NCBI RefSeq assembly: GCF_028463985.1
Contig: NZ_CP116766.1
Span: forward strand, 953,235 to 985,234
Direction: 5' to 3'
Length of the DNA stretch: 32,000 nucleotides
Origin: Neisseria lisongii
GTDB lineage: Bacteria; Pseudomonadota; Gammaproteobacteria; Burkholderiales; Neisseriaceae
Of this stretch, positions 2 through 25,124 are shown piece after piece (position 1 is the first letter of the stretch; every line of letters begins with the position of its first letter). A model generated the notes under the pieces. That model was not told the origin of the DNA. It searched no databases and worked only from the letters and a program-made list of their open reading frames with translations. The translations under genes were made by a program, and so were the position numbers.

Positions 2-3000
2 GATGGCGATACTCGTACTATCACCGTTAAAGCAGATACCACAACATTGAACTTAAGCAACACCAACAAAGATGGCACGGTAACCAATGGCTCAGTTGTT
101 GTTCCTAACGGTCAAGGCGATAAATTGGTTAATGCAACGACTATTGCAAATACTATCAACAATGTTTCTTGGGGCGTGGGTGGTAATGACGGCAAGAAAG
201 TAGCCGATGTGAAAGCTGGCAACCAAGTAAACTTTGTGAATGGCGTTGGCACAACAGCGGTTGTAAAACCAGGTGCAAAAGATGGTGAAACCAATGTTAC
301 CTTTAACAGCGCTGTGGCTTATGTCAATACTGGCGAGAAAGCAAACGACCAATCAACCCCAAGCAATAATGCAACATTGGTGGGTCCAAAAGACTCAACC
401 GAGGCGGTTTCATTACAAAATGTGGCGAGCGGTTTAGGTTTAACTAAAGAAGCAGCGAAAACCATTAAAGGTAAGGAATTTGCAGAGAAATTAGCCAATG
501 CAACCGATGCTCAACTTACCAACGCTGTAAACGTGGGTGATTTGAAAAACACCGTTAATGCGACTTTAAGCAAAGTTGGCTTTAACTTAACTACTGCAAA
601 TGGTGATAAATCAGAAGTTACTGTTGCAGAAAGTGATGATGAGAAAACCCAAGCAGCAAAAGCTGAAAAAGCCCGTATCAACAACAACGAAACCTTTACT
701 TTAGATCAAGGTAACGACAATATCGTTATTAAACAAATTGATAACGGTTATGAAATTTCTACCAATGCCACCTTAAAAGCCGATGAAGTGATTGTTGGTA
801 AAGATGGCAAAGACGGTAAAAACGGCGTTGATGGCAAAATCGGCGTAAACGGTAAAGACGGCTCATCTGTGGTGTTAAATGGTAAAGACGGCTCTATCGG
901 TTTGACTGGTCCGAAAGGTAAAGACGGTGTGGATGGTAAAGATGGTAAGTCAAGCTTAACATTCAAACCAGCTGATGGCACTGGCACGATCGATGAACGT
1001 GGTAAAGACGGTAAAGATGGTAGTGCAGCCAAAGATGCTAATGCGACCCGTATCGTTTACGAAACCAAAGATAAAGATGGTAAAGATATTACCCGTGAAG
1101 TGGCAACCACTGATGATGGTTTGTACTTCCAAGGTGATAACACTGAGGTGACCTTAGATCGTAAGCTGAACACTCGCTTAGATGTGAAAGGTGGTGCGGA
1201 TAAAGATAAACTTTCCGACAACAATATCGGTGTTCAAGGTAGCATTGATAAGGATGGCAATCGTGTATTGGATATTAAATTAGCCAAAGAAGTGACTAAT
1301 TTAACCAGCGTGGAAACGGTTAATCCGACTAACAATACCACAACCAAACAAACAGGTGATGGTATTACAATTACTCACAATCCGAAAAATGAACAAGGTA
1401 ATCCGATCACAGAAGGTAAAAAACCGAATGTGAGTTTGACTATCAATGGCTTGGATAATGGTAATAACACTATTACCAACGTAACCAGCGGCTTAACCAC
1501 TTATACCGATGCACCAAAAACTGGTTTGTTGGATTTAAGTAAAAAAGAAAACGGTGTTCCTGATACCAATGCAGCGACCGTTGGCGACTTGAGAAAAATG
1601 GGTTGGATTGTCACAACCAGCAAAGATGGTAAAGATAAGCCTTACTCAGACAAAGTACAAAATGCTGACACAGTTGATTTTGTGGGCGATGGCGTAACTG
1701 TAACTGGTGAAACTAAAGACGGTGTTCGCACAATTACCATTAAAGCTGAACCAACTAAAGCGAGCGAAACCAAGTGGACATTAAATGGTAAAGACGAAAA
1801 TGGTGCTGACACTAATAGCACCGTTGGTAATGGCAATGCTGTGAACTTTGTTAATGGTGTTGGCACAACGGCAGTTGTGAAAAAAGGTAAAGACGGTGAA
1901 ACCAATGTGACCTTTAACAGTGCGGTGGCTTATGTCAATACTGGCGATAAAGTAAACGACCAATCAACCCCAAGCAACACCACTAAATTAGTTGGCCCGA
2001 AAGACAGCACAGACCCAGTGGCGTTGAAAAATGTGGCAAGTGGTTTGCGTGATGTTGAGGGTGCAAATACCAATGCAACCACCTTTATTAAGGCGTTGAA
2101 AGAGTTAAATAGCACTAAAGAGACTGACAAAGCAACCTTAGAAACCGCAGTGAATGTGAGTGATTTGAAAAATGTTGCACAAGCAGGTTTGAACTTCACA
2201 GGTAACAATGCTGACCACCACGCCGACATTCACAAAAACTTAGGTGAAACCTTGACAGTGAAAGGTGGCATTACAACCATCGCTAAAGGTAATCCAAATG
2301 CAGGTAACGCATCAAAAGCCGTATCAGATAAAAATACCTATGTTGAAAATGATGGTACAAATCTGATCGTTAAAATTGCGGAAAACCCAGAGTTTACTGG
2401 TTTGAATTTAACCAATAAAACAACTGGCGATAACCCTGTAACCAGCACTGTAAACTTTGATCCAACCACCAATAAAGATGGCGATACAACCTTAACCTTA
2501 AATAATGGTACTACAGGTGGTAATGTCGTGATCTCTGGTGTGGCAAATGGCACAAATACTTATGGTGGCGTTTCTGCAGAAGGCGATAAATTAACCAAAG
2601 TTGGTGATAGCTATTACAAAGCAGATCAATTTGAAAACGGTAGCTTAAAACCTAATGCAACGCCAACTGCAGTGAAAGATGGAAACCAAACCAATGCATT
2701 AAATGGTCTGGCTGATTTAGCCACATCGGTAAATAGCAATGCAATTACCGTGGGTGATGCGAAGAAACTGGGTTGGGTTGTAACAACCAGTGAAGATGGC
2801 AAAGAAGATCATTATGCAGATAAAGTACAAAACGCTGACACTGTTGATTTTGTGGGCAAAAATGGCGTAACCGTAACCGGTGAAACCAAAAAAGGTGTTC
2901 GTACTGTTACCGTTGATGTAGATGCACAAAAAGTGGTAGAAAGTGCGCAATTACCAGTGGTTTATACCGATAAAAACGGTAAGAAAGTGTATAAAGTGAA

Positions 3001-3997
3001 AAAACCAGATGGTTCTTATGTCTTTAACACCCAACCAGATGGCAAGGGTACGGAAGTTAAGCCAGAAGATGTCATCGCCTCTATGAACAGCGGTGGTAAT
3101 AACACTTCAACACCAGTGGCATTGCACAATGTTCAAAATGCAACGCAAACTTATGCTGTGGCACCAAAAGCCCCAACTACGGGCGATAATCCGCAACCAT
3201 ATATCCCTGCGAATATCACCAGTTATCTTAAAGGTGGTGATGCACCGTTTAGCAAATTGGCGAACTTAGATGCAGCAAATCCAAATGCGGCGTTAACCGT
3301 GGCGGATGCACGTAATTTAGGCTGGGTTGTTGGTGCTGGTAAAAATGATGGTGGCAACATTACCAATACCTATGCAGCATCAGTAACCAATGCTCAAGTG
3401 GTTGAGTTTGTGGGTGATGATGGCGGTATTATTACCGTTGAAGGTAAAACCCTTGAGAATGGTATTCGTCAAATCAAGTTGAATGTGACCAAAGATGCAT
3501 TGAAAGGGCTTAAAGGCGATCCAGGTGATAAAGGCCCTGACGGTGATAAAGGCCCAACTGGCGATAAAGGCCCAACTGGCGACAAAGGTCCTGATGGCGA
3601 TAAAGGCCAACCAGGCGACAAAGGTCCTGATGGCGATAAAGGCCAACCAGGCGACAAAGGCCCTGATGGCGACAAAGGCCAACCAGGCGACAAGGGTCCT
3701 GATGGCGACAAAGGTCAACCAGGTGATAAAGGCCAACCAGGTGATAAAGGTCCTGATGGCGATAAAGGCCAACCAGGCGACAAAGGCCCTGATGGCGATA
3801 AAGGCCAACCAGGTGATAAAGGTCCTGATGGCGACAAGGGTCCTGATGGCGACAAAGGTCCTGATGGCGATAAAGGCCCACCAGGCGACAAGGGTCCTGA
3901 TGGCGACAAAGGCAGGCGACAGGGTCCTGATAAAGGTCCTGATGGCGACAAAGGCCCTGATGGCGATAAAGGCCAACCATGGCGACAAAGGCCCTGA
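2..3997 (+). CDS. Trimeric autotransporter adhesin, passenger part (5' partial). It ends at a premature stop caused by indels in the repeat.
   Basis: 1316-aa ORF in the track. It shows repeated head/neck/Trp-ring style modules and internal duplication ([14 protein letters not shown]...[13 protein letters not shown] occurs twice). The last roughly 160 aa are Gly-X-Y triplets. Confidence 0.8.
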
Positions 3998-4455: not shown

Positions 4456-7122
4456 AACTTTAACCTAACAACCAACGGCGATACCTCCGTGATCGATGCA
4501 ATTACCGATGCTGGTAAGAAAGCTGAAGCAACCCGTATCGACAACGGCAACACCTTTAATTTAAATGAAGGTGATAAGAATATCGTTGTTAAACAGATCA
4601 ATAAAGGTTACGAGCTTTCTGCTAATACCAATTTCCAAATTGGTGAGAAAGGTGAACCGGGCGAACCAGGTGAAAATGGTGCGGAAGGTAAACCAGGAAA
4701 ACCTGGCGTTGATGGCAAAATCGGCGTAAACGGTAAAGACGGCTCATCTGTGGTGTTAAATGGTAAAGACGGCTCTATCGGCTTGACTGGTCCGAAAGGC
4801 AAAGACGGTGTGGATGGTAAAGATGGTAAATCAAGCTTAACATTCAAACCAGCTGATGGCACTGGCACGATCGATGAACGTGGTAAAGACGGTAAAGATG
4901 GTAGTGCAGCCAAAGATGCTAATGCGACCCGTATCGTTTACGAAACCAAAGATAAAGATGGTAAAGATATTACTCGTGAAATTGCAACCACTGATGATGG
5001 CTTGTATTTCAAAGGTGATAATGACACCGTTTTAGATCGTAAATTGAATACCCGTTTAGATGTGAAAGGTGGTGCGGATAAAGATAAACTTTCCGACAAT
5101 AATATCGGTGTTCAAGGTCGTATTGATGAGAAAACTGGTGAACGTGTATTGGATATTAAATTAGCCAAAGAAGTGACTAATTTAACCAGCGTGGAAACAG
5201 TTAATCCGACTAACAATACCACAACCACACAAACAGGTGATGGCATTACGATTACTCACAATCCGAAAGATGAACAGGGTAATCCGATCACAGAGGGTAA
5301 AAAACCGAATGTGAGCTTGACTATCAATGGTTTGGATAACGGCAATAACCAAATTGTTAATGTGGCAAATGGCACAGTGACTTATGGCGATAACGCAAGC
5401 AAAATTGGCGGTTTAACGAACAATACCAATGTGCCAGATAGCATCAAAAACTTGGCTGATTTGAACAATTCGAATGGTTCAAATGCAATCACTGTAAACG
5501 ATGCGAAACGTTTAGGCTGGATTGTTCAAGCGTCTGAAAATGAATATAAAGATGCGGTGAATAACGCTAATATCGTGGACTTCAAAGGTAATGGTTCATT
5601 TGTAAGCGTAACGGGTAAAACAGACGAAGCAACTAAAGTGCGTACGGTTAGCGTGGATGTGGATGCACAAAAACTTGTGGAAAATGCACAGTTACCAGTG
5701 GTTTATACCAATAAAGAGGGTGATAAACTGGTTAAAGTTGGCAACAACTTCTATAAAGCTGGTGATGTTGTAAATGGTAAGCCGTCTGAAAATGCAACGC
5801 CAGTTAAAGCTGGTGATGTCATTGCCTCGATGAATAATGGCGATAACAGCACCACAACGCCGACAACTTTGGCTAATGTGAAATCGAACTTGCCTGAAAC
5901 TCGTAATACAGCAGATGGCAATAAAGCAGTAACGACATCACAACAAGCTCCAAGCGATGTTGAAAACATCACTAACAACGCTGCAACAGCGGGTGATGTA
6001 TTGAATGCAGGTTGGAACTTGCAAGGTAACGGTAATGCTGTTGATTTTGTGAAGACTTACGATACAGTGAACTTTGCAGATGGTAAGAATACCAATGTAA
6101 ACGTAACCTCAGACGGTACGGTAAGCAAGGTTGTCGTTGATGTTAAAGATCAATTAACTTTAGGCAAACCATCTGAACCAGGTAAAGACGGCAAACCGGG
6201 CAAAGACGGTGTTGATGGCTTTATCGGCGTAAACGGTAAAGACGGCGTTTCTGGTGTTGCAATCAACGGTAAAGACGGTTCTATCGGCTTGCGTGGCCCG
6301 AAAGGTGCTGATGGTAAAGACGGTTCAAGTTTGACCTTTAAACCAGCTGAAGGCACTGGCACGATTGATGAGCGTGGCAAAGACGGCAAAGATGGCAGCA
6401 CAGCCAAAGATGCTAATGCAACCCGTATCGTTTACGAAACCAAAGGTAAAGACGGTCGAGACATTACCCGCGAAGTGGCAACCACGGATGATGGCTTGTA
6501 CTTCCAAGGTGATAACACTAATGTGACCTTAGATCGTAAGCTGAACACCCGCTTGGATGTGAAAGGCGGTGCGGATTCAACCAAGCTGACTGAGAAAAAT
6601 ATCGGTGTGGTTGGTCGCATTGACGAAGATGGCAACCGTGTTCTTGATGTGAAACTGGCTGAAAACATTGATTTGGGTGCTAAAGGCAGCGTGAAAACTG
6701 GCGACACCACCATCAATGATAATGGCGTAGCCATTAATAATGGTCCAAGCATTACCAAAGATGGTATTGATGCCGGTAACACAGTGATCACCAATGTCGC
6801 ACCGGGCGTTAATCCGACCGATGCGGTGAATGTGAGCCAGTTGAAACAAAACATTGGTGATGTCAACAACCGTATCAACAAGCTGGATAAGGATTATCAA
6901 GCGGGTATCGCCGGTGTGGCTGCATTGGCCGGTCTGCCTGAAATCCATATGGCGGGACACTCTATGCTGTCTGCTGCGGTAGGCAACCATAAAGGTCAAA
7001 GCGCCTTGGCTGTGGGTTACTCACGCCTGTCGGACAACAGCAAAGTGAAGCTGAAAATCCAAGGTAGTGCGAATACCCAAGGCGATATCACCACCAGCGT
7101 TGGCATTGGTTACGCTTGGTAA
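4267..7122 (+). CDS. Trimeric autotransporter adhesin, C-terminal part with the YadA-like membrane anchor. It has no independent start and continues the frameshifted gene.
   Basis: Frame 1 is open from 4267 (the track ORF starts at an internal GTG at 4489). The C-terminus reads [41 protein letters not shown]...[42 protein letters not shown], which is a coiled-coil stalk plus a 4-strand beta anchor ending in aromatic W. Confidence 0.85.
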
Positions 7123-7781: not shown

Positions 7782-9092
7782 ATGACCGCAAATTCCGCCC
7801 CACTGCTGCGCTTTATCACTGCCGGCAGCGTTGACGACGGCAAATCCACCCTCATCGGCCGTCTGCTTTACGACAGCAAAACCTTGTTGAGCGACCAAAT
7901 CGACAAGCTCAACCGTGCCGCCGATAACGGCGAAACCCCTGATTTCGCCAGCCTGACCGACGGCTTGGCGGCCGAACGGGAACAAGGCATCACCATCGAT
8001 GTCGCCTACCGCTATTTTGCCACTGCCAAACGCAAATTCATCATCGCCGACACTCCCGGCCACGAACAATACACCCGCAATATGGTAACCGGCGCATCCA
8101 CCGCCGATGCCGCCATTATTTTGGTGGACGCTACCCGTGTCGATTTCAGCGGCGAGACCCCCGTATTGCTGCCGCAAACCAAACGCCACAGCGCCATTTT
8201 AAAACTCTTGGGCTGCCCGAATATCATCGTGGCCGTCAATAAACTGGATTTGGTCGGCTATGATGAAACCAAATATCAAGCAATTGTTGCCGCCTACCGT
8301 GCGCTTGCAGAACAAATCGAACTGAACGTATCGCTGCACTTCCTGCCAATCAGCGCCCTGCAAGGCGACAATATCGTCAGCGCCAGCGCCAACACCCCTT
8401 GGTATCAAGGTCTGCCGCTGCTGCCTTTACTCGAAAGCCTGCCCGTTTCCCGCCACAACGCCGCCGGTCAGCCCGCCTACTTCTCCGTGCAGCGTGTCGC
8501 CCGCCAAGACGGAAGCAGCAGCGACGACTTCCGAGGCTACCAAGGCCGATTGGAAGCAGGCCGTCTGAAAACCGGCGACGAAGTCAAAATCCTGCCCAAC
8601 GGCCAAACCGCCCGCATTGCCGAAATTTACAGCCCCGAAGGCAAAACCGACAACGCCGAAGCCGGTGACGTATTGACCATCACACTAGACACCGACATTG
8701 ACATTTCGCGAGGCAACGCCATTGTCGCCGCCGCCAGCCCGGTTGCACCGGAACAACAATTCCAAGCCGCCCTGTGCTGGTTTGACCACACCCCGCTGAA
8801 CATCCGCCGCAAATACCTGCTGAAACACACCACGCAAACCACCGCAGTAAAAATCAGCGCCATCGACTATGTGTGGGACGTACACACCCTCAGCCGAGTG
8901 CAATCAGCGGACGATTTGAAACTCAACGACATCGGCCACGTCAGCCTGAAAACCCAACAGCCGCTGAACGCCACCGCATACGACGAAAACCCCGCCACCG
9001 GCGCATTTATCCTGATTGACGAAGCCACCAACCACACCGTCGCCGCCGGTATGATCCGCAGCCGCAACACAGCGGACAGTTTTGAAATTTAA
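7782..9092 (+). CDS. cysN: Sulfate adenylyltransferase subunit 1 (CysN, GTPase subunit). There is no CysC fusion.
   Basis: 436 aa. G1 motif GSVDDGKSTLIGRLL, DGLAAEREQGITIDVAYRYF, DTPGHEQYTRNM and NKLD, which are EF-Tu-like GTPase motifs typical of CysN. RBS aaggaaacc lies before the ATG. Confidence 0.93.
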   Translation: MTANSAPLLRFITAGSVDDGKSTLIGRLLYDSKTLLSDQIDKLNRAADNGETPDFASLTDGLAAEREQGITIDVAYRYFATAKRKFIIADTPGHEQYTRNMVTGASTADAAIILVDATRVDFSGETPVLLPQTKRHSAILKLLGCPNIIVAVNKLDLVGYDETKYQAIVAAYRALAEQIELNVSLHFLPISALQGDNIVSASANTPWYQGLPLLPLLESLPVSRHNAAGQPAYFSVQRVARQDGSSSDDFRGYQGRLEAGRLKTGDEVKILPNGQTARIAEIYSPEGKTDNAEAGDVLTITLDTDIDISRGNAIVAAASPVAPEQQFQAALCWFDHTPLNIRRKYLLKHTTQTTAVKISAIDYVWDVHTLSRVQSADDLKLNDIGHVSLKTQQPLNATAYDENPATGAFILIDEATNHTVAAGMIRSRNTADSFEI

Positions 9093-9631: not shown

Positions 9632-10597
9632 ATGTCAACAATTAACCGTGTTTCTACATATGCTGATGATGTCATCATGCAACCGTTGCCACTACGGGCT
9701 GAATGTGCGCAGCGCATTCAGCTTCCTTGTCTAAATAGTAACAACTGCATTGAGGGTAGCAACAACTCTTCAAATACTGCCAAAACCTTACCAATCGGCT
9801 ATGAAAAATTTCTACCTAATGAAATGAAAGCTGATTTCAACCAGTTTTCTACTTCCCACAGAAAATCATCGGCTGCTTTAGAAATGAATGTCCGGCAATT
9901 TATTGAGGCATTCGGAATTAATCATGTCGGTTTTTTAACGCTGACTTTCGCCGATGATGTCCAAGATGTCAAAGAGGCTTCCCGTAGATTTCACAGTTTG
10001 CGGACGAATTTTTTAAGCAAACATTTCAAGCATTACGTTTGTGTATACGAACGCATGAAAAGCGGTCGTATACATTTTCACCTTATCGTCAATACACGTG
10101 AAAACATCCGCCGAGGTTTGAATTTCAGACAAATACAGGCCCGCAATTATACCAGTGCCAATAAAGCACTGCGACAATTATGGGCTTTGCTTCGTGAAAA
10201 TATGGGCAAGTATGGTTTCGGGCGTTCTGAATTGCTACCGGTTAAGACCAACAGCAAAGGTTTGGCGAAATACGTCAGCAAATATATTAAAAAACACATT
10301 AACAGCCGTCTTCCCGAAGATAAAGGTTACAGGCTGATTCGCACTACGATTGATAAACAGAGTTTATGGAAAATTGCCAACAGTAATTTTTCATTTGTCA
10401 GTGCTGGTTCCCGACTGTGGCGGGAACAGCTTCAGAAATGGATTATTTGCATTGAACCGTATCTTAAACAATATGCCAGACAGGAGTTTGCCCGTGAATT
10501 AAAGCCGATTACCGAAGAAAACTACAGCCAGATTTTAAGCAGCCTAATTAGCCCCAAATGGGCATTTTATAACCGGGAAACCATTTTAAATATGTAA
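9632..10597 (+). CDS. Phage rolling-circle replication initiation protein (HUH endonuclease, gpII-like).
   Basis: 321 aa. Motif 1-like FLTLTF, HUH motif RIHFHLIV and Tyr motif GLAKYVSKYIKKH. It is the first gene of the module. RBS aagggg. Confidence 0.8.
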   Translation: MSTINRVSTYADDVIMQPLPLRAECAQRIQLPCLNSNNCIEGSNNSSNTAKTLPIGYEKFLPNEMKADFNQFSTSHRKSSAALEMNVRQFIEAFGINHVGFLTLTFADDVQDVKEASRRFHSLRTNFLSKHFKHYVCVYERMKSGRIHFHLIVNTRENIRRGLNFRQIQARNYTSANKALRQLWALLRENMGKYGFGRSELLPVKTNSKGLAKYVSKYIKKHINSRLPEDKGYRLIRTTIDKQSLWKIANSNFSFVSAGSRLWREQLQKWIICIEPYLKQYARQEFARELKPITEENYSQILSSLISPKWAFYNRETILNM

Positions 10598-10607
10598 GGA
10601 ATCCATC

Positions 10608-10874
10608 ATGAGCGAACCCCAAAAGAAACAGGGATTTTTTGTTGTTGCTGCATTTGACCGCATGATTGTACGGGAACGTAAAAACGAAGACGGCAGCTAT
10701 ACCAAAACCCATTATGTCGGTTTGATTGTACGTACAGAAGAGGGCACACGTCTGTGTCAGGTACGCACCAAGCAGCCTGAAAAATACAGCCATTACAAAC
10801 TGAATGATATTGTCAATATGGAAGTATTTCCACGGGCATTTAAAGACAATATCTATTATTCGGACGAGACATAA
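10608..10874 (+). CDS. Small phage protein. From its position it is a putative ssDNA-binding protein (gpV-like).
   Basis: 88 aa, directly after rep with RBS aaggaa. The assignment rests on synteny only. Confidence 0.5.
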   Translation: MSEPQKKQGFFVVAAFDRMIVRERKNEDGSYTKTHYVGLIVRTEEGTRLCQVRTKQPEKYSHYKLNDIVNMEVFPRAFKDNIYYSDET

Positions 10875-10946
10875 TCAGAATTCACGGTTCGGGCTGCGCC
10901 GTGATGACCCCAATCAGCAGCCCACATTTTTTTGAAGGAGAAAATT

Positions 10947-18123: not shown

Positions 18124-19524
18124 TTAAAATGCTTTTTCAAAGCTGAGGAATACTTTGTGTTTACGGTAGCTGTGCAGGGCATCGATGTTGCTTTTTACTC
18201 GGGTCAGACGCCAGTTGAGTTGGGGGGTGATGCCCCAGACGTTCAGGCGGGTGTTCCAGAGGGTGAGCGACAGTGCGCGGTTGTGGTCTTGGCGGCGGGT
18301 GTCGGTGAAGATGTAGTGGGTGCCGTCGTAGCGTTCGTTGTAGCGGTTGAATACGAGGCGGCTACCAAAGCCGGCCGGCCAGCTTTGTCCCCAGCCGATG
18401 TAGCCGCCCAGGCGTTTGCTGCTGGAACTTGGGGCGGCGTGCATTTTTTCCCGACTGCCGTTGATGCCGCCAAACAGATAGGTTTGGCTGCCTGCGAGAT
18501 AGGTTGCGCCTATGCTCAGGCTGCTGTCTCGACCGTGGCGGTGTTGGGTGTAGCTTTTCCAGCCTTGGGAGCTGTTGGCGGAGAGCCGCCAGCGGTCGGT
18601 TATCCAGCGGGATATGCCGCTGTCGATGCCGGTTTTGCTGTAATAGGGTTCGTTGCCGTAGCGGCGTTTTTCCCAAAAGGGTAAGAGGTAGCCGTCTGTT
18701 TTAAGTGATTTGAAACGGTAGCCGCTGAATACTTTGAGGGTCATGTCGTCATAGTCGTGGCGGTTCCAGTAGCTGGTGCCGTCTAATGATGCACCTATGC
18801 CCAGATAGTGGTGGCCGCTGAGGCTGTAGTCTTTGTCGGCTGAGAGGCCGTAGGAGAAGCCTTTGGCTTTTTTGGGTAGGTATTCTTCGTTTTTGGTGAG
18901 GGCCAGTCCGGGGAATTGGGGGGTGGTGATGGTTTTTTCGGCGGATACGTTGTTAATGTTGTTGTCGGCTTCGTAATTGAGGTTGCCTGAGAAGCGCCAG
19001 CGTTGGGCTTCGGTGATGGCATTTTCGTATTCTGTGATGCGGGGTAAAACGTCTTCCGGTAAGCCGGCGTTTTTGGCTTCGTTAAAGGTGGTTTGGGCAT
19101 CTTTGAGCTGTTTGTCTTCAAACAGCATGGCGGCCAAGTCGAGTTTGACGGCGGGTAGGTCGGGGTTTTGGGCCAACATGCGGCGGTAGCTTTTGATGGC
19201 TTGACTGTGTTTGCCTTCGGCACGCCATAGAGCGCCTTGGGCGAACTCGGCCACTGCGCCGTAGTGGCGCATGGTAAGGGCTTGGTTAAGCAGGGGTTCG
19301 CTGAGGGCGGGGTTTTGCTGCATTTCTTCTATGCTTGGGGGTGTGGCTGCTGCGGTTTCCTGTGTGTTGTCGGGTTGGCTCGGGCTGAGGCTGTCGCCGA
19401 TTTCGGGCTGCTGCGGGGCTTGCTGCGGTAATACTTTGTCTAAATGGCGGTCGGCATCGCTTTCGGGAGCGGCTTGGGCATAGCTGCAGGCGAGCAGTAA
19501 GAGGGTTATGGCTGTTTTTTTCAT
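18124..19524 (-). CDS. Surface lipoprotein assembly modifier (Slam): an N-terminal TPR-like region plus a DUF560 outer-membrane beta-barrel.
   Basis: 466 aa from [18 protein letters not shown], a signal peptide with RBS aggaaacc (the track ORF begins further upstream at 19599). The barrel region is rich in alternating aromatic residues ([17 protein letters not shown]...[13 protein letters not shown]...[27 protein letters not shown]...VFLSFEKAF) and ends in F. It lies next to a TbpB-fold lipoprotein gene. Confidence 0.85.
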
Positions 19525-19648
19525 GTGGTTTCCTGTTTTTTGAAAAAAGGCCGTCTGAAAACTTTGAACTGTCCCCAAAAAGTTGGACACTCCCTCCAAC
19601 TTTAAAAGGTGCAGTTCACTTCTTCAGCGGCCTTTTAATCGGGGTTAT

Positions 19649-20435
19649 CGTGGATTCACTTAAAGGTGTAGGCTGGGTCGCCACCCGCACAATGTGAAAT
19701 TCACCATATGAAATTCACTGAATCCGTGCGTGCTGCGACACACGCTACACCAAATTCACCGGTAGCGTGCATGCCTGAGCATGCACGGGTTTGGTTCTAT
19801 CGTGAATTTGGAATGTGATATTCACTATGTGGCACTCACTGAATCCGTGCGTGCTACGGCACACACGCTACACCGAATTCACCGGTAGCACGCTTGCCTG
19901 AGCATGCACGGGTTGGTTCTATCGTGAATTTGGAATGTGATATTCACTATGTGGCACTCACTGAATCCGTGCGTGCTGCGGCACGCACGCTACACCAAAT
20001 TCACCGGTAGCACGCTTGCCTGAGCATGCACGGGTTTGGTTCTATCGTGAATTTGGAATGTGATATTCACTATATGAAATTCACTGAATCCGTGTGTGCT
20101 GCGGCACACACGCTACACCAAATTCACCGGTAGCACGCTTGCCTGAGCATGCACGGGTTTGGTTCTATCGTGAATTTGGAATGTGATATTCACTATGTGG
20201 CACTCACTGAATCCGTGCGTGCTGCGGCACGCACGCTACACCAAATTCACCGGTAGCACGTAGCACGCTTGCCTGAGCATGCACGGGTTTGGTTCTATCG
20301 TGAATTTGGAATGTGAAATTCACTATGTGGCACTCACTGAATCCGTGCGTGCTGCGGCACACACGCTACACCGAATTCACCGGTAGCACGCTTGCCTGAG
20401 CATGCACGGGTTTGGTAATCTATCGTGAATTTAAA
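19649..20435. repeat. Non-coding tandem array, about 6.5 copies of a unit of about 123 bp.
   Basis: The marker cgtgaatttg recurs at 19801, 19923, 20046, 20169 and 20299, and as cgtgaattta at 20424. The periods are 122, 123, 123, 130 and 125. Each unit holds the hairpins ccgtgcgtgc-tgcg-gcacgcacgCTACAC and gtagc(g/a)(t/c)gc(a/t)tgc-ctga-gcatgcacggg. No ORF of 60 aa or more is present. Confidence 0.9.
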
Positions 20436-20469
20436 ATGTGCTAAACATTCGATAACGACGCTATCTCCC

Positions 20470-20505
20470 CCAAAAAGGCCGTCTGAAAACTTCTTCAGCG
20501 GCCTT
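20470..20505 (-). terminator. DUS-pair hairpin terminator downstream of the lipoprotein gene.
   Basis: On the minus strand, aggccgctgaa-gaagtt-ttcagacggcct is followed by ttttt, 20 nt after the stop at 20525. Confidence 0.7.
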
Positions 20506-20524
20506 TGGTTCAAGGATTTAGTGT

Positions 20525-23431
20525 TTAACGTTTGCCGATAAAGCCGATTCGGTTCTCGCCATCATGAGTGGTGATATTCAAGATACCGCCGGCTTCTTGG
20601 GCTTTCGGGCCGCCGAAGACCATTTTGCCCGTACCGTAAATGGTTGCGGCTTCGTCTTTATGCGAACCTTTCATCCAAGCAGTCAGCTCCACATCTTTAC
20701 CGGCGGCACGCAAGGCCACATCTTTACCGGCATTTGCCTGCGGCATGCCTTGGGCAACTTGAAGCTGCTGTTTGAAGCCGCTGGCAAAGAATAAATCGCG
20801 CGGTTTGCCTTGGCTGTCTTTATCCAAACGGCGGTTGGTAATCTTACCGTTTACGGCCACTTTTTGAGCAAAGCCGTCTGCACCTGCGGTGAATTTGGCA
20901 TTCAACGTCAGCTTGCCGTCTTGTTTGCCGTCTTTGCTGTTATAGGCAAGGCCGCTATAAGTGGCCTGCAAACCTTGGATACCCGGCTTGTGCGGATCAT
21001 CAACATACAGCGGCAGGTTTTGTTCGCCGTTTGTAAATCTGCCAAGCTTGTCGAATACCTGAATATTGTATGGCCCTGCCTGATATTTGCCTGCGCCGTC
21101 TTTATATTTCCAGGCGGTCAGATTCAGATACGCCTGATCCACGCCGTTGGCCTTGCCGATATCGTAGCTGTAAATTGCAACTTTAGGATCATTACTCTGC
21201 TTATCTGAAAGATAAGCAAAACGTTGCGCCAATACTCGTTTATCGGCAAACACGCCTTGCTTCACTTGCTCTACTGCGGCAAAAAAACCTTGGCCATGTC
21301 CTGAGTTATAAAAGAATGGCTCACCTGGAATTGATTTTTCAATCAAATACTTATTATTTAAAGCATCATGACGAACAACATACTCTCCTTTCGGCAATGC
21401 AATTTTAAAGCCATCACCATAACGAGTACCAGGTTCAAAACCAATCAACTCAGCTTTAATTCCAGGTTCAATAGCGATATCATCTGCCTTTAAGTCAAAA
21501 TACTGACCAAGCGAAAGATTGACATCCCCTTTCTCATCGTCATACCCTTCTGTACGCCCGCCTAAAACTAGATAAGTATCCGGTTCTTTTATACTAAATG
21601 TAGCAACTCTACGACCTGTCAAATCATAAAACTGTTGTTCTACTGACGGCTCATGAAGTAAACGTCCGCCCAAAGCAGTTGATTTCTTCTCTGCACTGAC
21701 TTTCCAAAAAGGGGCTTTTGTTTCATTATCAACAAATGCTTCAATTTCGTTCACTCCTGGTAATACATCAAGCAAAGGATACTCAATTAGCCTCCATGAT
21801 CGATAGATATCTCCGCTCGGATTTGCATTACCTGTCGGACTCACTTCAGACAGCAAAGCCAAGCCCACTCGAGCAAATCTACTTGTGGTTGCATTTAAAA
21901 TATCAACGGTTGTACCATCTTCATAATCCAGCCCAGCTTGTTTATAAACCTCAGTACCAATTCTATTGACTTCGGTTAATGGATTAGGGAAATAGCTATC
22001 TTTAGCAAGAACAAAATTTCCCTGGTATGAATCAGATGTTATATCAATCTTATCCCACCCATCTCCAACTTCTTTTCTCATAATATTCTTCGGACTAAAC
22101 ACCTTGATACCGCTATGAACATAAAGATTCGGCTGCGCAGAAAAATCATCAGCAACCGCTATATCAATTTCTGATGAATTAAAGAGTTCATAAGGAGCTT
22201 TACTACTATAGTTACTTAATGCGTCTTTACTCAGTTGAGCCAATTTCTGATCCAAATCCCCACGCAGTGCTTTTTTCCTTTCCGCTTCAATCTGATCATA
22301 AACTGCTTGCACTTCCTGCTGCAGCGCATTTGCGGCGGCAAGCGCTGCTTTATCGGCTGCTGCCTGTTTATCCGCTGCCTGTTTCAGGCTTTGGGCTTCG
22401 GCCAGCTGTTTGGCGGCTTGGGCTTGCAATGCTTGGGCTTGAGCCTTAGTTGCTGCGGTGGCATTGGCTACGGCTTGGTCGGCCTGAGTTTTTGCGGCTT
22501 GGGCGGCATTGACTGCAGTTTGAGCTTTTTGGGCGGCAGTTTGGGCGGCTGTATTGGCGGCCTCGGCGGCTTGTACTGAGGCGTTGGCTTTGGCTACTGC
22601 GTCTGCTTTAGCGGCGGTAGTGCTGCCTGCTTTGGCGGCATCGGCTGCGGTTTTAGCGGCAGCGGCGGCTTTGGCGGCGGCTTCGCTGCTTTGTTTGGCA
22701 GTTTGGGCTGCTTTCAGGCTGTCGGCAACGCCGGTGCTGGATTTTTGTGCCTCTGCCAATGCGGCTTGGGCTTTTTGATCTGCAGTTTGGTGTTGAGCAT
22801 CTTGGGCTTGGGCCTGTTGATAGCTTTTTTGTTTTTCTGCGGCCAGTTTGGCTGATTGGTTTTTCAGCTCTTGGCTGGCTTTGAGTTGGGCTTCAATCTG
22901 TTTCAGACGGCTTTCGGTTTGCTGTTTGAGCGCTTCTACTTGTTTTTTCAGATCAGCGGCTGCTGTCTTCTCGGCCTCGGTTTTGGCTGCTGCGATGGCG
23001 GCATTCGCTTTGTTTAAGGCATCTTGTGCGGTTTGCTGCGCTTTTTGGGCTTGGGCCAATGCGGCATTGGCAGTTTTTAGGGCTTCGGCTGCGCTGCGGT
23101 CGGTGGCAGCGGCTTTGTCTGCTGCGGTTTTTTTATCCGCTGTGGTGGTTTGGTTTTGCTCGATGCTGGTGAGCTGTTGTTTGATTTGTTTGGTTTTGAT
23201 GTCTGTTTGTTCGACATCTTGGGTCAGGCTTTGCAGCGCTGAGCGCAGGGCTTGCAGGCTGCTTTGGGCGGATTGTTCGGCTGTTTGATAGCTTTGCGGC
23301 TGGGTTGCGCCGGTGATCAGATTCCAGTCGATCGGTTTGTCGTTGACGCTGCCGCAGGCGCTTAATACGGCGGCACATACGCCGGTTAATACGAATTTGG
23401 TTACCGGAAGTTTGTGTTTTTGAGAAGTCAT
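20525..23431 (-). CDS. Large surface lipoprotein, a putative Slam substrate. It has a lipobox, an Ala/Gln/Lys-rich coiled coil of about 340 aa, a central domain of unknown family, and a TbpB-type C-terminal beta-barrel.
   Basis: 968 aa. The lipobox is VLSAC|GS. Residues of about 60-400 are low-complexity AQAK heptad-like sequence. The C-terminus reads LQATYSGLAYNSKDGKQDGKLTLNAKFTAG...VAVNGKIT...DLFFASGF...GKMVFGGPKAQEAGGILNITTHDGENRIGFIGKR. This fits the pattern G.A.Y.G ... F.G.i ... G.F.GP.A.E.GG ... FGAKR seen in TbpB, LbpB, HpuA and fHbp barrels. Confidence 0.85.
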   Translation of the reverse strand: MTSQKHKLPVTKFVLTGVCAAVLSACGSVNDKPIDWNLITGATQPQSYQTAEQSAQSSLQALRSALQSLTQDVEQTDIKTKQIKQQLTSIEQNQTTTADKKTAADKAAATDRSAAEALKTANAALAQAQKAQQTAQDALNKANAAIAAAKTEAEKTAAADLKKQVEALKQQTESRLKQIEAQLKASQELKNQSAKLAAEKQKSYQQAQAQDAQHQTADQKAQAALAEAQKSSTGVADSLKAAQTAKQSSEAAAKAAAAAKTAADAAKAGSTTAAKADAVAKANASVQAAEAANTAAQTAAQKAQTAVNAAQAAKTQADQAVANATAATKAQAQALQAQAAKQLAEAQSLKQAADKQAAADKAALAAANALQQEVQAVYDQIEAERKKALRGDLDQKLAQLSKDALSNYSSKAPYELFNSSEIDIAVADDFSAQPNLYVHSGIKVFSPKNIMRKEVGDGWDKIDITSDSYQGNFVLAKDSYFPNPLTEVNRIGTEVYKQAGLDYEDGTTVDILNATTSRFARVGLALLSEVSPTGNANPSGDIYRSWRLIEYPLLDVLPGVNEIEAFVDNETKAPFWKVSAEKKSTALGGRLLHEPSVEQQFYDLTGRRVATFSIKEPDTYLVLGGRTEGYDDEKGDVNLSLGQYFDLKADDIAIEPGIKAELIGFEPGTRYGDGFKIALPKGEYVVRHDALNNKYLIEKSIPGEPFFYNSGHGQGFFAAVEQVKQGVFADKRVLAQRFAYLSDKQSNDPKVAIYSYDIGKANGVDQAYLNLTAWKYKDGAGKYQAGPYNIQVFDKLGRFTNGEQNLPLYVDDPHKPGIQGLQATYSGLAYNSKDGKQDGKLTLNAKFTAGADGFAQKVAVNGKITNRRLDKDSQGKPRDLFFASGFKQQLQVAQGMPQANAGKDVALRAAGKDVELTAWMKGSHKDEAATIYGTGKMVFGGPKAQEAGGILNITTHDGENRIGFIGKR

Positions 23432-23623
23432 ATACCTATCCTCTAAGTTTAGTGGCTTGCTGTCTGCTCCGTCGCTGCAGCGGTAGAGAACAGCTGCATT
23501 GATGGGCCAAACGGCACTTAAGATAAATCGATTTTTGACTGCTGCTGTGATACAGCAGGCATATCGGCAACTTGCCTTTATGCTGCTTAGATTGTAAACT
23601 TTTGAAAATTAAAAGACTATAAT

Positions 23624-23658
23624 AGGTTAGGTTAGGTTAGGTTAGGTTAGGTTAGGTT
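23624..23658. repeat. Pentanucleotide simple-sequence repeat, (AGGTT)7.
   Basis: aggtt occurs 7 times in perfect tandem, 193-227 nt upstream of the lipoprotein start codon (AACCT on the coding strand). Confidence 0.95.
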
Positions 23659-23798
23659 AATTATTGTTTGATTGTGTTAATTTTTATGGGATATTTAGAG
23701 TTGATAGCCTATTTTCAGATGGCATAATGGCTGGCGACGGAGAAGGTTTTTTAAACAAGGAAGATGATGCCGTCTGAAAATTGGGCTTGCGGTTTGTA

Positions 23799-23916
23799 TA
23801 TAGTGAATTAACCAAAAAATATGACAACCCAAGTGAATCACCCTCCCCTAGCCCCTTCCCGCCAGCGGGACGGGTGGTTCACTTGGGTTGTCATATTTTT
23901 TGGTTAATTCACTATA
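23799..23916. repeat. 118-bp palindromic MITE with the dRS3-like core.
   Basis: The roughly 44-bp arms tatagtgaattaaccaaaaaatatgacaacccaagtgaatcaccc and gggtggttcacttgggttgtcatattttttggttaattcactata flank ...ccccttcccgccagcggga.... A half copy lies at 25373-25437. Confidence 0.8.
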
Positions 23917-24054
23917 TATGGTGGATCCACTTAATACTCCATACAATTTAATCCGATACCTGTAGCAACTGTATTTTTCACCCCGTCGGGCAAAAATACA
24001 AAAACGGTTAGTCTGAAGGCCGGTCTGAACAAAACCGGCAATACTTCAACATGA

Positions 24055-25002
24055 TCAAACAGCACTCACTGCCGCCAAACGATCCCGCATCATCGCATTC
24101 AGAATCGTCAGCAGCTTACGCATACAGGCCGTTACCGCCACTTTGTACGGCTTACCCCGCAAACGCAGACGTTGGTAGAAGTCCTTAATCCTCGGTTCGT
24201 AGTGTGCCGCCACCATCGCCGCCATATACAGCGTTTTGCGTACAGCACTGCGCCCGCCGAAACAGCGGCTTTTAAACTTCATTGTGCCGCTTTCTTTCAC
24301 ATAAGGGGCGACACCTACCAAACCGGCAATCTGTTTATGCGATACTCTGCCCAATTCCGGCAACATCGCACATAAGGTCGCTGCAGTAGTCGGGCCGATA
24401 CCTTTGATGCTTTGCAGCAGACTGCTTTTGTCGCCAAAATGAGTGTCGTTATGTTCTTCGATCTGTCTGTCCAAAGCAGCAATCAGTGCGTCGAAATGTG
24501 CGATCAGTGCTTCAACACTTTGAATCTGTGTTTCATGTACCTGCTGCAAACGGTTTTTTTCGGCACTGCGCATTTCAACCAGTTGAGTGCGGCGGCTGAT
24601 TAAGGCTTCGAGGATTTCTTCTGCCTCACTCGGCGGCGTATAGAGCTGCCGTTCCCAATCGGGCTTTTGTGTGATTACCTGTGCGTAAAACGCCAACATT
24701 TTGGCATCGGCCGCATCGGTTTTGGTGAGTGATTGCGACTGTGCGAATTGGTGCGTCTGACGGGGATTGGCAATGATGACTTTGAATCCTGCCCGGTGCA
24801 GTGCTTTGGCCAATGGGATTTCCAGTCCGCCGGTGCTTTCCATCACAACCAGTGAGACCTGATGTTTTTTCAGGTATTCGATGGTGTGGAGAAAGCCTTT
24901 TTGGTTGTTGGTCTCGGTTTTGGTCTTTTTGGAAGACGTGATGCCGATAACGAAGTTTCGTTTGGCGATGTCGATACCGCCGTAGTTTTGGGTACTCATC
25001 AT
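24055..25002 (-). CDS. IS110-family transposase/recombinase.
   Basis: 315 aa from MMSTQNYGGIDIAK. Alternative starts are at 25017 and 24999. Motifs: VMESTGGLE, KTDAADAKMLAFY, IKGIGPTTAATLCA and LVGVAPYVKESGTMKFKSRCFGGRSAVRKTLYMAAM. Confidence 0.88.
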   Translation of the reverse strand: MMSTQNYGGIDIAKRNFVIGITSSKKTKTETNNQKGFLHTIEYLKKHQVSLVVMESTGGLEIPLAKALHRAGFKVIIANPRQTHQFAQSQSLTKTDAADAKMLAFYAQVITQKPDWERQLYTPPSEAEEILEALISRRTQLVEMRSAEKNRLQQVHETQIQSVEALIAHFDALIAALDRQIEEHNDTHFGDKSSLLQSIKGIGPTTAATLCAMLPELGRVSHKQIAGLVGVAPYVKESGTMKFKSRCFGGRSAVRKTLYMAAMVAAHYEPRIKDFYQRLRLRGKPYKVAVTACMRKLLTILNAMMRDRLAAVSAV

Positions 25003-25010
25003 AAACCTGT

Positions 25011-25124
25011 CTTGCATTCGGTTGTGTTGTCGGGCAACTGTCCGGTTGTGTTGATGGGTTGCCCGGCTTCCCTAAGCTACACAGCGGTTGTTGAACCTTG
25101 GGTGCGCACGGGTGGCGGCCGGGC
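25011..25124 (-). ncRNA. Candidate bridge RNA of the IS110 element at 23964-25164.
   Basis: On the minus strand the stem GCCCGGC (25124-25118) pairs with GCCGGGC (25067-25061). The loop has CGCACCC (25106-25100, left flank plus the C of the core), the hairpin GGTTcaacAACC, and TGTGTAG (25083-25077, reverse complement of CTACACA). Then come ACAGTTGC (25041-25034, the right end) and CAAG (25014-25011). Confidence 0.5.

Follow-up and report, generated by a model that had tools for sequence, protein, structure and literature searches.

We analysed 32,000 nucleotides of DNA from Neisseria lisongii, a commensal-type Neisseria (assembly GCF_028463985.1, contig NZ_CP116766.1, positions 953,235 to 985,234, forward strand). 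This whole stretch is referred to as "the window", and coordinates are window positions unless another locus is named. Two genes on the minus strand are the subject of this report: the downstream gene encodes a Slam, an exporter of type 11 secretion, and the upstream gene encodes a lipoprotein precursor of 968 amino acids (aa) that we call the cargo. They are a real Slam-cargo pair, correctly recognised by an earlier reading made without database searches (the "sequence-only reading"), and the cargo is an unusually large variant of a known surface-protein class. The two genes and the parts of the cargo are placed as follows.

18124..19524, minus strand: Slam gene, 466 aa from the ATG at 19524, with a signal peptide, a periplasmic TPR region and a 14-strand-type SlipAM barrel.
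20525..23431, minus strand: cargo gene, 968-aa lipoprotein precursor (mature protein 943 aa, about 101 kDa).
23357..23431, minus strand: lipoprotein signal peptide with lipobox L-S-A-C, aa 1-25, as read from the sequence; Cys26 is the lipidated N-terminus.
22196..23296, minus strand: alpha-helical stalk rich in Ala, Gln and Lys, aa 46-412 (367 aa).
21395..22195, minus strand: orphan central domain, predicted to be beta-rich, aa about 413-679, acidic (isoelectric point 4.5) and strain-variable.
20972..21394, minus strand: handle or pedestal region, aa about 680-820, alignable with the latter portion of the N-terminal domain of fHbp; model confidence is low.
20528..20971, minus strand: C-terminal 8-stranded beta-barrel, aa about 821-968, presumed to be the Slam targeting domain.

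Profile searches bear out the identification of the 466-aa protein as a Slam. It matches SlipAM/DUF560 (PF04575) over residues 176-466 and profile positions 1-288 of 288 (E = 1.3e-67, 228.9 bits against a cut-off of 22), and TPR_Slam (PF24575) over profile positions 48-104 of 104 only (E = 2.7e-18, 66.8 bits against a cut-off of 35.2). A Sec signal peptide, followed by AP, was read from its sequence. The cargo begins MTSQKHKLPVTKFVLTGVCAAVLSAC and continues with GS, which constitutes a lipobox: VLSAC occupies residues 22-26 and is preceded by a basic n-region and a hydrophobic core. It ends ...FGGPKAQEAGGILNITTHDGENRIGFIGKR; the open reading frames (ORFs), their coordinates and the closing IGFIGKR of the cargo are all as the sequence-only reading gave them.

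Neisseria sp. ZJ106 has a 100% identical counterpart of each protein; its Slam is annotated "surface lipoprotein assembly modifier", and the ZJ106 draft assembly shares the 5' region of the cargo gene with the window. The GenBank annotation of the ZJ106 cargo (P0001) begins at an internal TTG, 124 codons late, giving a protein of 844 aa from which signal peptide and lipobox are omitted, although the DNA is identical and the 968-aa frame is open. Because this late start hides the lipobox, lipoprotein screens of the databases would miss the cargo. On the minus strand the cargo gene lies upstream and the Slam gene about 1 kb downstream. The sequence-only reading took the two for neighbouring genes on the same strand; the strand is right, but the genes are not adjacent, being separated by 925 bp that hold six copies of a 123-bp repeat.

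The cargo family and its pairing with Slam

Relatives of the cargo were gathered from the neighbours of Slam genes, by an exhaustive HMMER search and by a scan of one genome per species. The exhaustive search, over 1.84 billion representatives, returned 6 relatives, and a word-indexed protein search returned just two near-identical N. lisongii proteins, even when the query was a 10-sequence alignment. The genome scan added 17 further loci, in N. flavescens, N. oralis, N. sicca, several oral Neisseria, Alysiella crassa and Neisseria sp. WLZKY-1. The cargo proteins form a very small family, restricted to the Neisseriaceae. We did not find it described in the literature searched, and its short-spacer members may be among the clusters with a "disordered N-terminus" in PMC12282271.

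A survey of the distribution of the pair, proposed by the sequence-only reading as a check, found cargo and exporter coupled without exception: in 25 of 25 family loci a Slam gene lies directly downstream of the cargo gene on the same strand. In other species the gap between them is only about 100 bp, as against 925 bp in the window. The association is also apparent from the exporter's side. The nearest relatives of the window Slam (49-56% identity) adjoin members of the cargo family, which are large proteins without Pfam matches, and the sub-group that they form with it is met only beside this family.

Members of the family differ mainly in what follows the lipid anchor. Most are about 650-720 aa long and carry a near-identical lipobox, with the motif KxPxxxFVLTGICAAxLxAC shared between the window protein and members from other species, followed by short low-complexity spacers of the type (GKDNxxKPxT)n or (GNTDK)n; the member at locus L006 has a TPTTP spacer. 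A long helix after the lipobox was found only in the window protein, in the protein of locus L004 and in P0020, a Slam-adjacent protein of 924 aa that aligns with the cargo along its whole length at 34% identity (E = 1e-88). To judge from these sequences, the post-anchor segment behaves like a spacer that can be exchanged, and the conserved functional part would lie in the central and fHbp-like domains.

The L004 locus, from a metagenome-assembled Neisseria genome, carries an extra gene between cargo and Slam (L004 6145-6915). Its 256-aa product matches no Pfam family and is predicted to pass through the membrane several times before ending in a charged helical tail.

Anatomy of the cargo

The sequence-only reading assigned the C-terminus of the cargo to the 8-stranded barrel type by which Slam cargos are recognised. 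The cargo taken alone, whole or in pieces, has no significant match in Pfam or NCBIfam, but several lines of evidence from the family and from the predicted fold uphold the assignment, with fHbp as the closest known protein. A profile built from 10 family sequences gave 23 matches in the PDB, all of them to fHbp (best E = 1.1e-4) and colinear over fHbp residues of about 37-262. Three of the 10 family members match FHBP_C (PF08794) singly, the best at 1.1e-5. In an AlphaFold model made with a 573-aa query and a 7-sequence alignment, the last 148 aa or so form 8 long strands (426-436, 442-453, 461-476, 482-489, 519-526, 535-545, 551-560 and 563-572 in the numbering of the query), with a per-residue confidence score (pLDDT) of about 80-86. 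When this model was compared with the PDB by Foldseek, the top 40 matches were all fHbp (E down to 8.5e-6), followed by the C-domain of NHBA (6cuj, E = 1e-3), TbpB and hemophilin. All of these folds are known from Slam cargo or from related barrel lipoproteins of Neisseria. A second AlphaFold run on the C-terminal 312 aa alone was worse (pLDDT 44) and gave the same Foldseek ranking.

The similarity to fHbp is not limited to the barrel. The profile alignment covers fHbp residues of about 37-222, which supports the handle region at aa 680-820 of the cargo, and the family motif YD[VI]GxANGxxQxYLxLxxWxxK falls inside this interval. Taken together, the last 290 aa or so constitute a divergent fHbp-like module of handle plus barrel, with strong support for the barrel and weaker support for the handle.

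At the other end of the mature protein, a 20-aa linker joins Cys26 to the helical stalk. The stalk contains 0 Pro and 3 Gly, with 32% Ala, 16% Gln and 11% Lys, and would be about 54 nm long if it were one continuous helix or coiled coil. No tandem DNA repeat was found in the region that encodes it. Its description as an M-protein-like coiled coil in the sequence-only reading holds for the proline-free, helix-prone character of the region; heptads are only local. Over the whole stalk the 3.5-residue periodicity reaches a z of 0.8 (2.4 at a period of 3.67), whereas locally z is 4-4.6 for aa 51-155 and 2-2.7 for aa 156-260. In two homologues, P0020 (z = 6.4) and the L004 protein (z = 9.6), heptad periodicity is strong and phase-coherent. 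The a and d positions of the window stalk are mostly Ala, and a coiled coil is plausible there.

Between stalk and handle lies the central domain. The sequence-only reading had left about 400 aa in this part of the protein unassigned; about 267 aa remain so, while the other 140 or so are those that align with the N-terminal domain of fHbp. No relatives of the central domain were found in Pfam or NCBIfam scans and none that were convincing in the PDB, where its profile gave only weak and implausible matches (F-BAR Imp2, 0.005; PepSY, 0.006) that we rejected. AlphaFold assigns it a pLDDT below 50. An origin by duplication, as in the bilobed TbpB, is unsupported, as an hhalign comparison of the central domain with the C-terminal module shows no internal duplication. 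Within the family the domain is conserved, for example in the motif PLSxxNLIG...ILNQTASKFEL...RYTxWFNNF.

Strain differences and surrounding DNA

Beyond what the sequence-only reading had noted, the analysis brought out a 17-aa deletion in Slam, simple-sequence repeats, insertion sequence (IS) elements, a prophage and a receptor-coupled family member. The features outside the cargo coding sequence are these.

19246..19252 (codon about 92), minus strand: 51-bp in-frame deletion in the Slam gene, removing 17 aa (AALLPIYRQWPQHDPML), with TGGCCG microhomology on both sides.
19691..20440, no strand: tandem repeat array of 6 x 123 bp between the cargo stop and the Slam start (Tandem Repeats Finder score 1244, 91% matches).
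20470..20512, minus strand: imperfect inverted pair of DNA-uptake sequences with a T-run, just past the cargo stop (ggccgctgaagaagttttcagacggccttttt), read from the sequence.
23623..23659, minus strand: pentanucleotide repeat (TAACC) x 7.4, about 190-230 bp upstream of the cargo start, found by Tandem Repeats Finder and in the sequence, and identical in the ZJ106 draft.
23797..23918, no strand: Correia-like inverted-repeat element upstream of the cargo promoter region, with 52-nt arms that are 94% complementary.

The strain used for comparison was N. lisongii CP185823 (locus L007), in which the cargo-Slam pair occupies the same chromosomal site, between era and a GTPase gene. The 17-aa TPR segment missing from the window Slam is kept in 8 of 8 homologues compared by protein alignment, and a DNA alignment with CP185823 confirmed the deletion. 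The intact CP185823 Slam (483 aa) matches TPR_Slam over positions 4-104 of 104 with 117 bits; the deletion in the window allele thus about halves the match.

The lesions in the two strains are reciprocal: the window strain carries the deletion in the Slam TPR region, while CP185823, whose Slam is intact, has lost the 5' part of its cargo gene. There, a deletion of about 1.1 kb runs from inside the left arm of the Correia-like element to codon 212 or thereabouts (junction at L007 7300-7560 versus window 22790-23870) and removes promoter region, signal peptide and lipobox, so that the ORF starts MTTQVNHP... without a signal peptide. The CP185823 cargo also carries an internal duplication of about 190 aa of helix. 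Elsewhere the two cargo proteins agree very unevenly. Identity is about 100% over helix residues 226-375 and over the last 210 aa, whereas it drops to 25-70% over aa 376-756, a mosaic pattern of divergence typical of surface antigens.

Each unit of the intergenic array holds a GC-rich sequence that can form a hairpin, and the copies stand head-to-tail. The CP185823 counterpart comprises 6 x 121 bp (L007 10302-11049). The 123-bp repeat belongs to no Rfam family and has no other copy in the window. The hairpin at 20470..20512 is likely a terminator or attenuator. Neither upstream of the cargo nor upstream of Slam did a promoter scan pick up a sigma-70-like site on the coding strand; the cargo gene keeps its ribosome-binding site. 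The (TAACC)n repeat has counterparts at the other two loci that encode a long helix, namely a poly-G9 tract (L002, -158) and a poly-G11 tract (L004, -124), and no comparable simple-sequence tract was found upstream of the forms of about 650 aa. This distribution, over three loci only, suggests that the tracts are candidates for phase variation or for variation in expression level. Further Correia-like elements, and several DNA-uptake sequences (AG-DUS type, by eye), are scattered in the intergenic regions.

Mobile DNA lies on both sides of the pair. A filamentous-phage-like block (9632-14898) encodes a replication protein (9632-10597), TspB (11926-13473) and Zot (13762-14898), and is followed by two IS110 transposase genes (15309-16256 and 16697-17746). 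Phage block and IS110 genes are inserted between Slam and the GTPase gene (7782-9092), and this insertion is absent in CP185823. A third IS110-family transposase gene (24055-25017) lies between era and the cargo promoter region, and the three IS110 copies of the window, like the prophage, are absent from CP185823. A composite transposon around the pair was considered and ruled out: the flanking transposases (24055-25017 and 16697-17746) are only 34% identical, and CP185823 has the pair at the same site without them. Farther away, two large ORFs (47-3997 and 4489-7122) encode trimeric-autotransporter Trp-ring domains and collagen triple-helix repeats. The YadA stalk and anchor are found only in ORF 4489-7122; ORF 47-3997 may be disrupted or may be a partner gene.

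Interpretation and relation to known systems

We consider it probable that the two genes form a Slam exporter-cargo pair of type 11 secretion whose cargo is a stalk-and-head surface lipoprotein, itself probably binding a host ligand, with the function of the pair in the window strain uncertain. The identity of the exporter, the lipobox, the barrel and the strict gene pairing are observations. The course of export would follow the published Slam model (PMC9090332, PMC5449769), in which cargo is threaded unfolded and recognised by a C-terminal motif (PMC9090332). The precursor would be exported by Sec and lipidated and carried unfolded to the outer membrane (Lol, Skp), where Slam would recognise the C-terminal barrel and thread the protein outward, and the lipid anchor would flip to the outer leaflet. 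Judging by the anatomy of the cargo, the stalk, probably in part a coiled-coil oligomer of up to about 50 nm, would then hold the variable domain and the fHbp-like module off the membrane. The role of the displayed domains would be to attach to a ligand from the host, in adhesion or in evasion of complement or immunity, and not to supply a TonB-dependent receptor; expression may vary by way of the upstream (TAACC)n tract.

Several observations weigh against this interpretation. A hidden Markov model search of the single cargo sequence, which the sequence-only reading had named as a check that could overturn the barrel, gave no significant match: FHBP_C scores E = 0.66 and 11.3 bits, under its gathering cut-off of 28.1. 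A phmmer search of the PDB found only the fHbp C-domain 1ys5 at E = 1.9, colinear at both ends of the barrel. Since the single sequence is not significant, only the family profile and the fold rescue the barrel assignment. The AlphaFold model as a whole is poor (mean pLDDT about 44-45), the barrel alone being confident, and the Foldseek alignments to fHbp, though they run over 220-260 columns of a protein of about 240 residues, have modest template-modelling (TM) scores of 0.35-0.51 and root-mean-square deviations of 5-15 A, with a low-confidence N-domain part. As for the genes, the repeat-filled spacer of 925 bp and the terminator-like hairpin mean that co-transcription is not assured. Loss of 17 conserved TPR residues may impair export by the window Slam, which makes the function of the pair in this strain uncertain, and loss of the cargo 5' region in CP185823 implies that the system is dispensable, and possibly decaying, in N. 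lisongii. Finally, one of the 25 family loci, that of a distant relative, is coupled to a receptor.

That locus (L025 1446-8455, Neisseria sp. WLZKY-1) encodes, all on the same strand, a TonB-dependent receptor (an ORF of 1176 aa from stop to stop, with HasR, PhuR and ShuA as its best PDB relatives), a short-linker family member directly downstream (37% identity) and then Slam. It lends some support to a different function, in which the cargo would be a nutrient-acquisition co-receptor or a hemophore-like protein in the manner of HpuA, TbpB or HphA, catching a host haem or iron protein and passing it to a TonB-dependent receptor encoded elsewhere. The presence of TbpB and hemophilin among the fold neighbours fits such a role, as does the finding of a TonB receptor in 120 of 185 Slam clusters (PMC5449769). 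We nevertheless regard it as unlikely. As the sequence-only reading stated, there is no TonB-dependent receptor among the ORFs of the 32-kb window, and none adjoins the cargo in the other 24 loci; the one further receptor, at L017 (N. oralis-type loci), is of the BauA-like siderophore type, is split from the cargo by an ORF on the opposite strand and was judged unrelated. The closest fold is that of fHbp, a binder of a complement regulator, and not that of TbpB or HpuA. Moreover, with a rigid stalk of up to about 54 nm the binding domains would stand far from a receptor in the membrane, and the receptor-coupled L025 member is one without a long spacer. The damage found in both strains could instead mean that what survives in this species is a non-functional remnant of the pair, in decay and no longer exporting in the window strain. 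The 51-bp deletion falls in a conserved part of the Slam TPR region, in CP185823 the promoter, the signal peptide and 210 codons of the cargo are gone and an internal duplication is present, and the surroundings of the window locus have, compared with CP185823, gained three IS110 copies and a filamentous prophage. Yet both ORFs of the window are intact and in frame, the cargo retaining ribosome-binding site, lipobox and complete barrel; the deletion touches neither the SlipAM barrel (1.3e-67) nor the latter half of the TPR domain, and a need for the deleted segment in export is not established in the Slam literature searched. The C-terminal 210 aa are 100% conserved between the strains. On balance, a mere remnant seems improbable, too.

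It is far less probable still that the cargo is no Slam substrate at all, but an outer-membrane lipoprotein that faces the periplasm and uses an Ala-rich helix like those of Lpp or TolA as an envelope tether, its proximity to Slam being coincidental. The sole PDB sequence match of the helical part is Braun's lipoprotein, at an insignificant E of 2.1, and the Ala-rich heptads resemble alanine zippers; however, coincidence is hard to reconcile with a Slam partner at every one of the 25 loci, the C-terminal module is an fHbp-type barrel, a helix of 367 aa far exceeds the width of the periplasm, and mosaic variability in the middle domain is consistent with exposure to a host. The preferred reading, a surface-displayed Slam cargo that binds a host ligand, can also be carried further, to a version that we regard as possible but doubtful. 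The cargo would then be a Gram-negative counterpart of the M-protein-type fibril: a lipoprotein threaded by Slam that, as a coiled-coil oligomer of about 50 nm, displays a hypervariable orphan domain and a head binding complement regulators in the manner of fHbp, beyond lipooligosaccharide and capsule. Stalk types (rigid helix or short disordered repeats) would be exchanged from species to species and so determine the height of display; promoter-proximal simple-sequence repeats, (TAACC)n here and poly-G in the other two long-stalk homologues, would switch expression; and the reciprocal lesions would reflect host immune selection against display.

Cargo of Slam and type 11 secretion is a principal source of vaccine antigens and immune-evasion factors in Neisseria (fHbp, TbpB, NHBA), and the locus defines a small, unannotated, Neisseriaceae-restricted family that has no Pfam model, is always accompanied by its own Slam subtype and carries an fHbp-like module. 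The variety of its spacers, from a long helix through short disordered repeats to almost none, offers natural material on the distance of cargo from the membrane and on the size and helicity that Slam can thread. The value of the case is limited because the architecture of helical region, pedestal and barrel, and its dependence on Slam, were published in 2025, and because function here is inferred.

Among known systems, the exporter compares with Slam1 and Slam2 of N. meningitidis and the wider DUF560 (type 11 secretion) family, with which it shares the layout of periplasmic TPR region and SlipAM barrel; the position of the exporter gene beside its presumed cargo recalls Slam2 and HpuA (PMC5449769). 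It differs from them in the 17 conserved TPR residues that the window allele lacks. For the stalk, the streptococcal M protein, like other fibrillar coiled-coil surface proteins, offers an analogy only: an Ala/Gln/Lys-rich helix of about 350 aa, with heptads in parts, that would project a binding region from the cell surface. The M protein is Gram-positive and held by a C-terminal LPXTG wall anchor, whereas the cargo has an N-terminal lipid anchor, and there is no homology between them. NHBA is likewise a lipoprotein of the neisserial surface in which a long N-terminal region that is not globular precedes an 8-stranded barrel at the C-terminus, but its N-terminus is disordered and Arg-rich rather than helical and it has no middle globular domain. 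NHBA is not among the Slam1 or Slam2 substrates listed in the Slam literature searched.

fHbp of N. meningitidis (GNA1870/LP2086), which depends on Slam1, shares with the cargo the N-terminal lipobox, the C-terminal 8-stranded barrel, the genus and the association with Slam, and is its best fold match in both models. The last 290 aa or so of the cargo are colinear with fHbp residues of about 37-262, down to the closing motif (GIFGGKAQEVAGSAEVKT..IGLAAK in fHbp, FGGPKAQEAGGILNITT..IGFIGKR in the cargo). In contrast, fHbp has about 255-275 aa and a short flexible linker where the cargo, with 968 aa, has the 367-aa helix and an orphan domain of about 270 aa; identity between them is only 12-20%, with the cargo under the FHBP_C gathering score, and fHbp is not encoded beside its Slam.

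A precedent for the general architecture is the "Pls-like" cargo of Haemophilus parahaemolyticus (STO63610.1, exporter TepS; Microb Genom 2025, PMC12282271), and the contrast drawn in the sequence-only reading, between known cargos and one with such a helical region, is outdated by it. In general, Slam-dependent lipoproteins vary in their N-terminal part, which is followed by a beta "pedestal" and an 8-stranded barrel (PMC12282271). The Pls-like protein, like the cargo, has a lipid anchor, a long helical region, pedestal and barrel, and its gene lies beside that of a DUF560 exporter; this helical-repeat lipoprotein needs its type 11 secretion partner for surface exposure (PMC12282271). It has about 525 aa and a charged repeat of the EEARKA type, whereas the helix of the cargo is rich in Ala, Gln and Lys and is not a tandem repeat; the motifs EEARKA and E[EA]A[RK]KA are absent from the cargo. 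No relation in sequence to Pls-like proteins was found, with no direct test for one made. The cargo has in addition an orphan domain, its module is fHbp-like rather than TbpB-like, and it is nearly double the size. What sets the cargo apart from the Pls-like precedent is thus the type of helix, the orphan domain, the fHbp-like module and the size.

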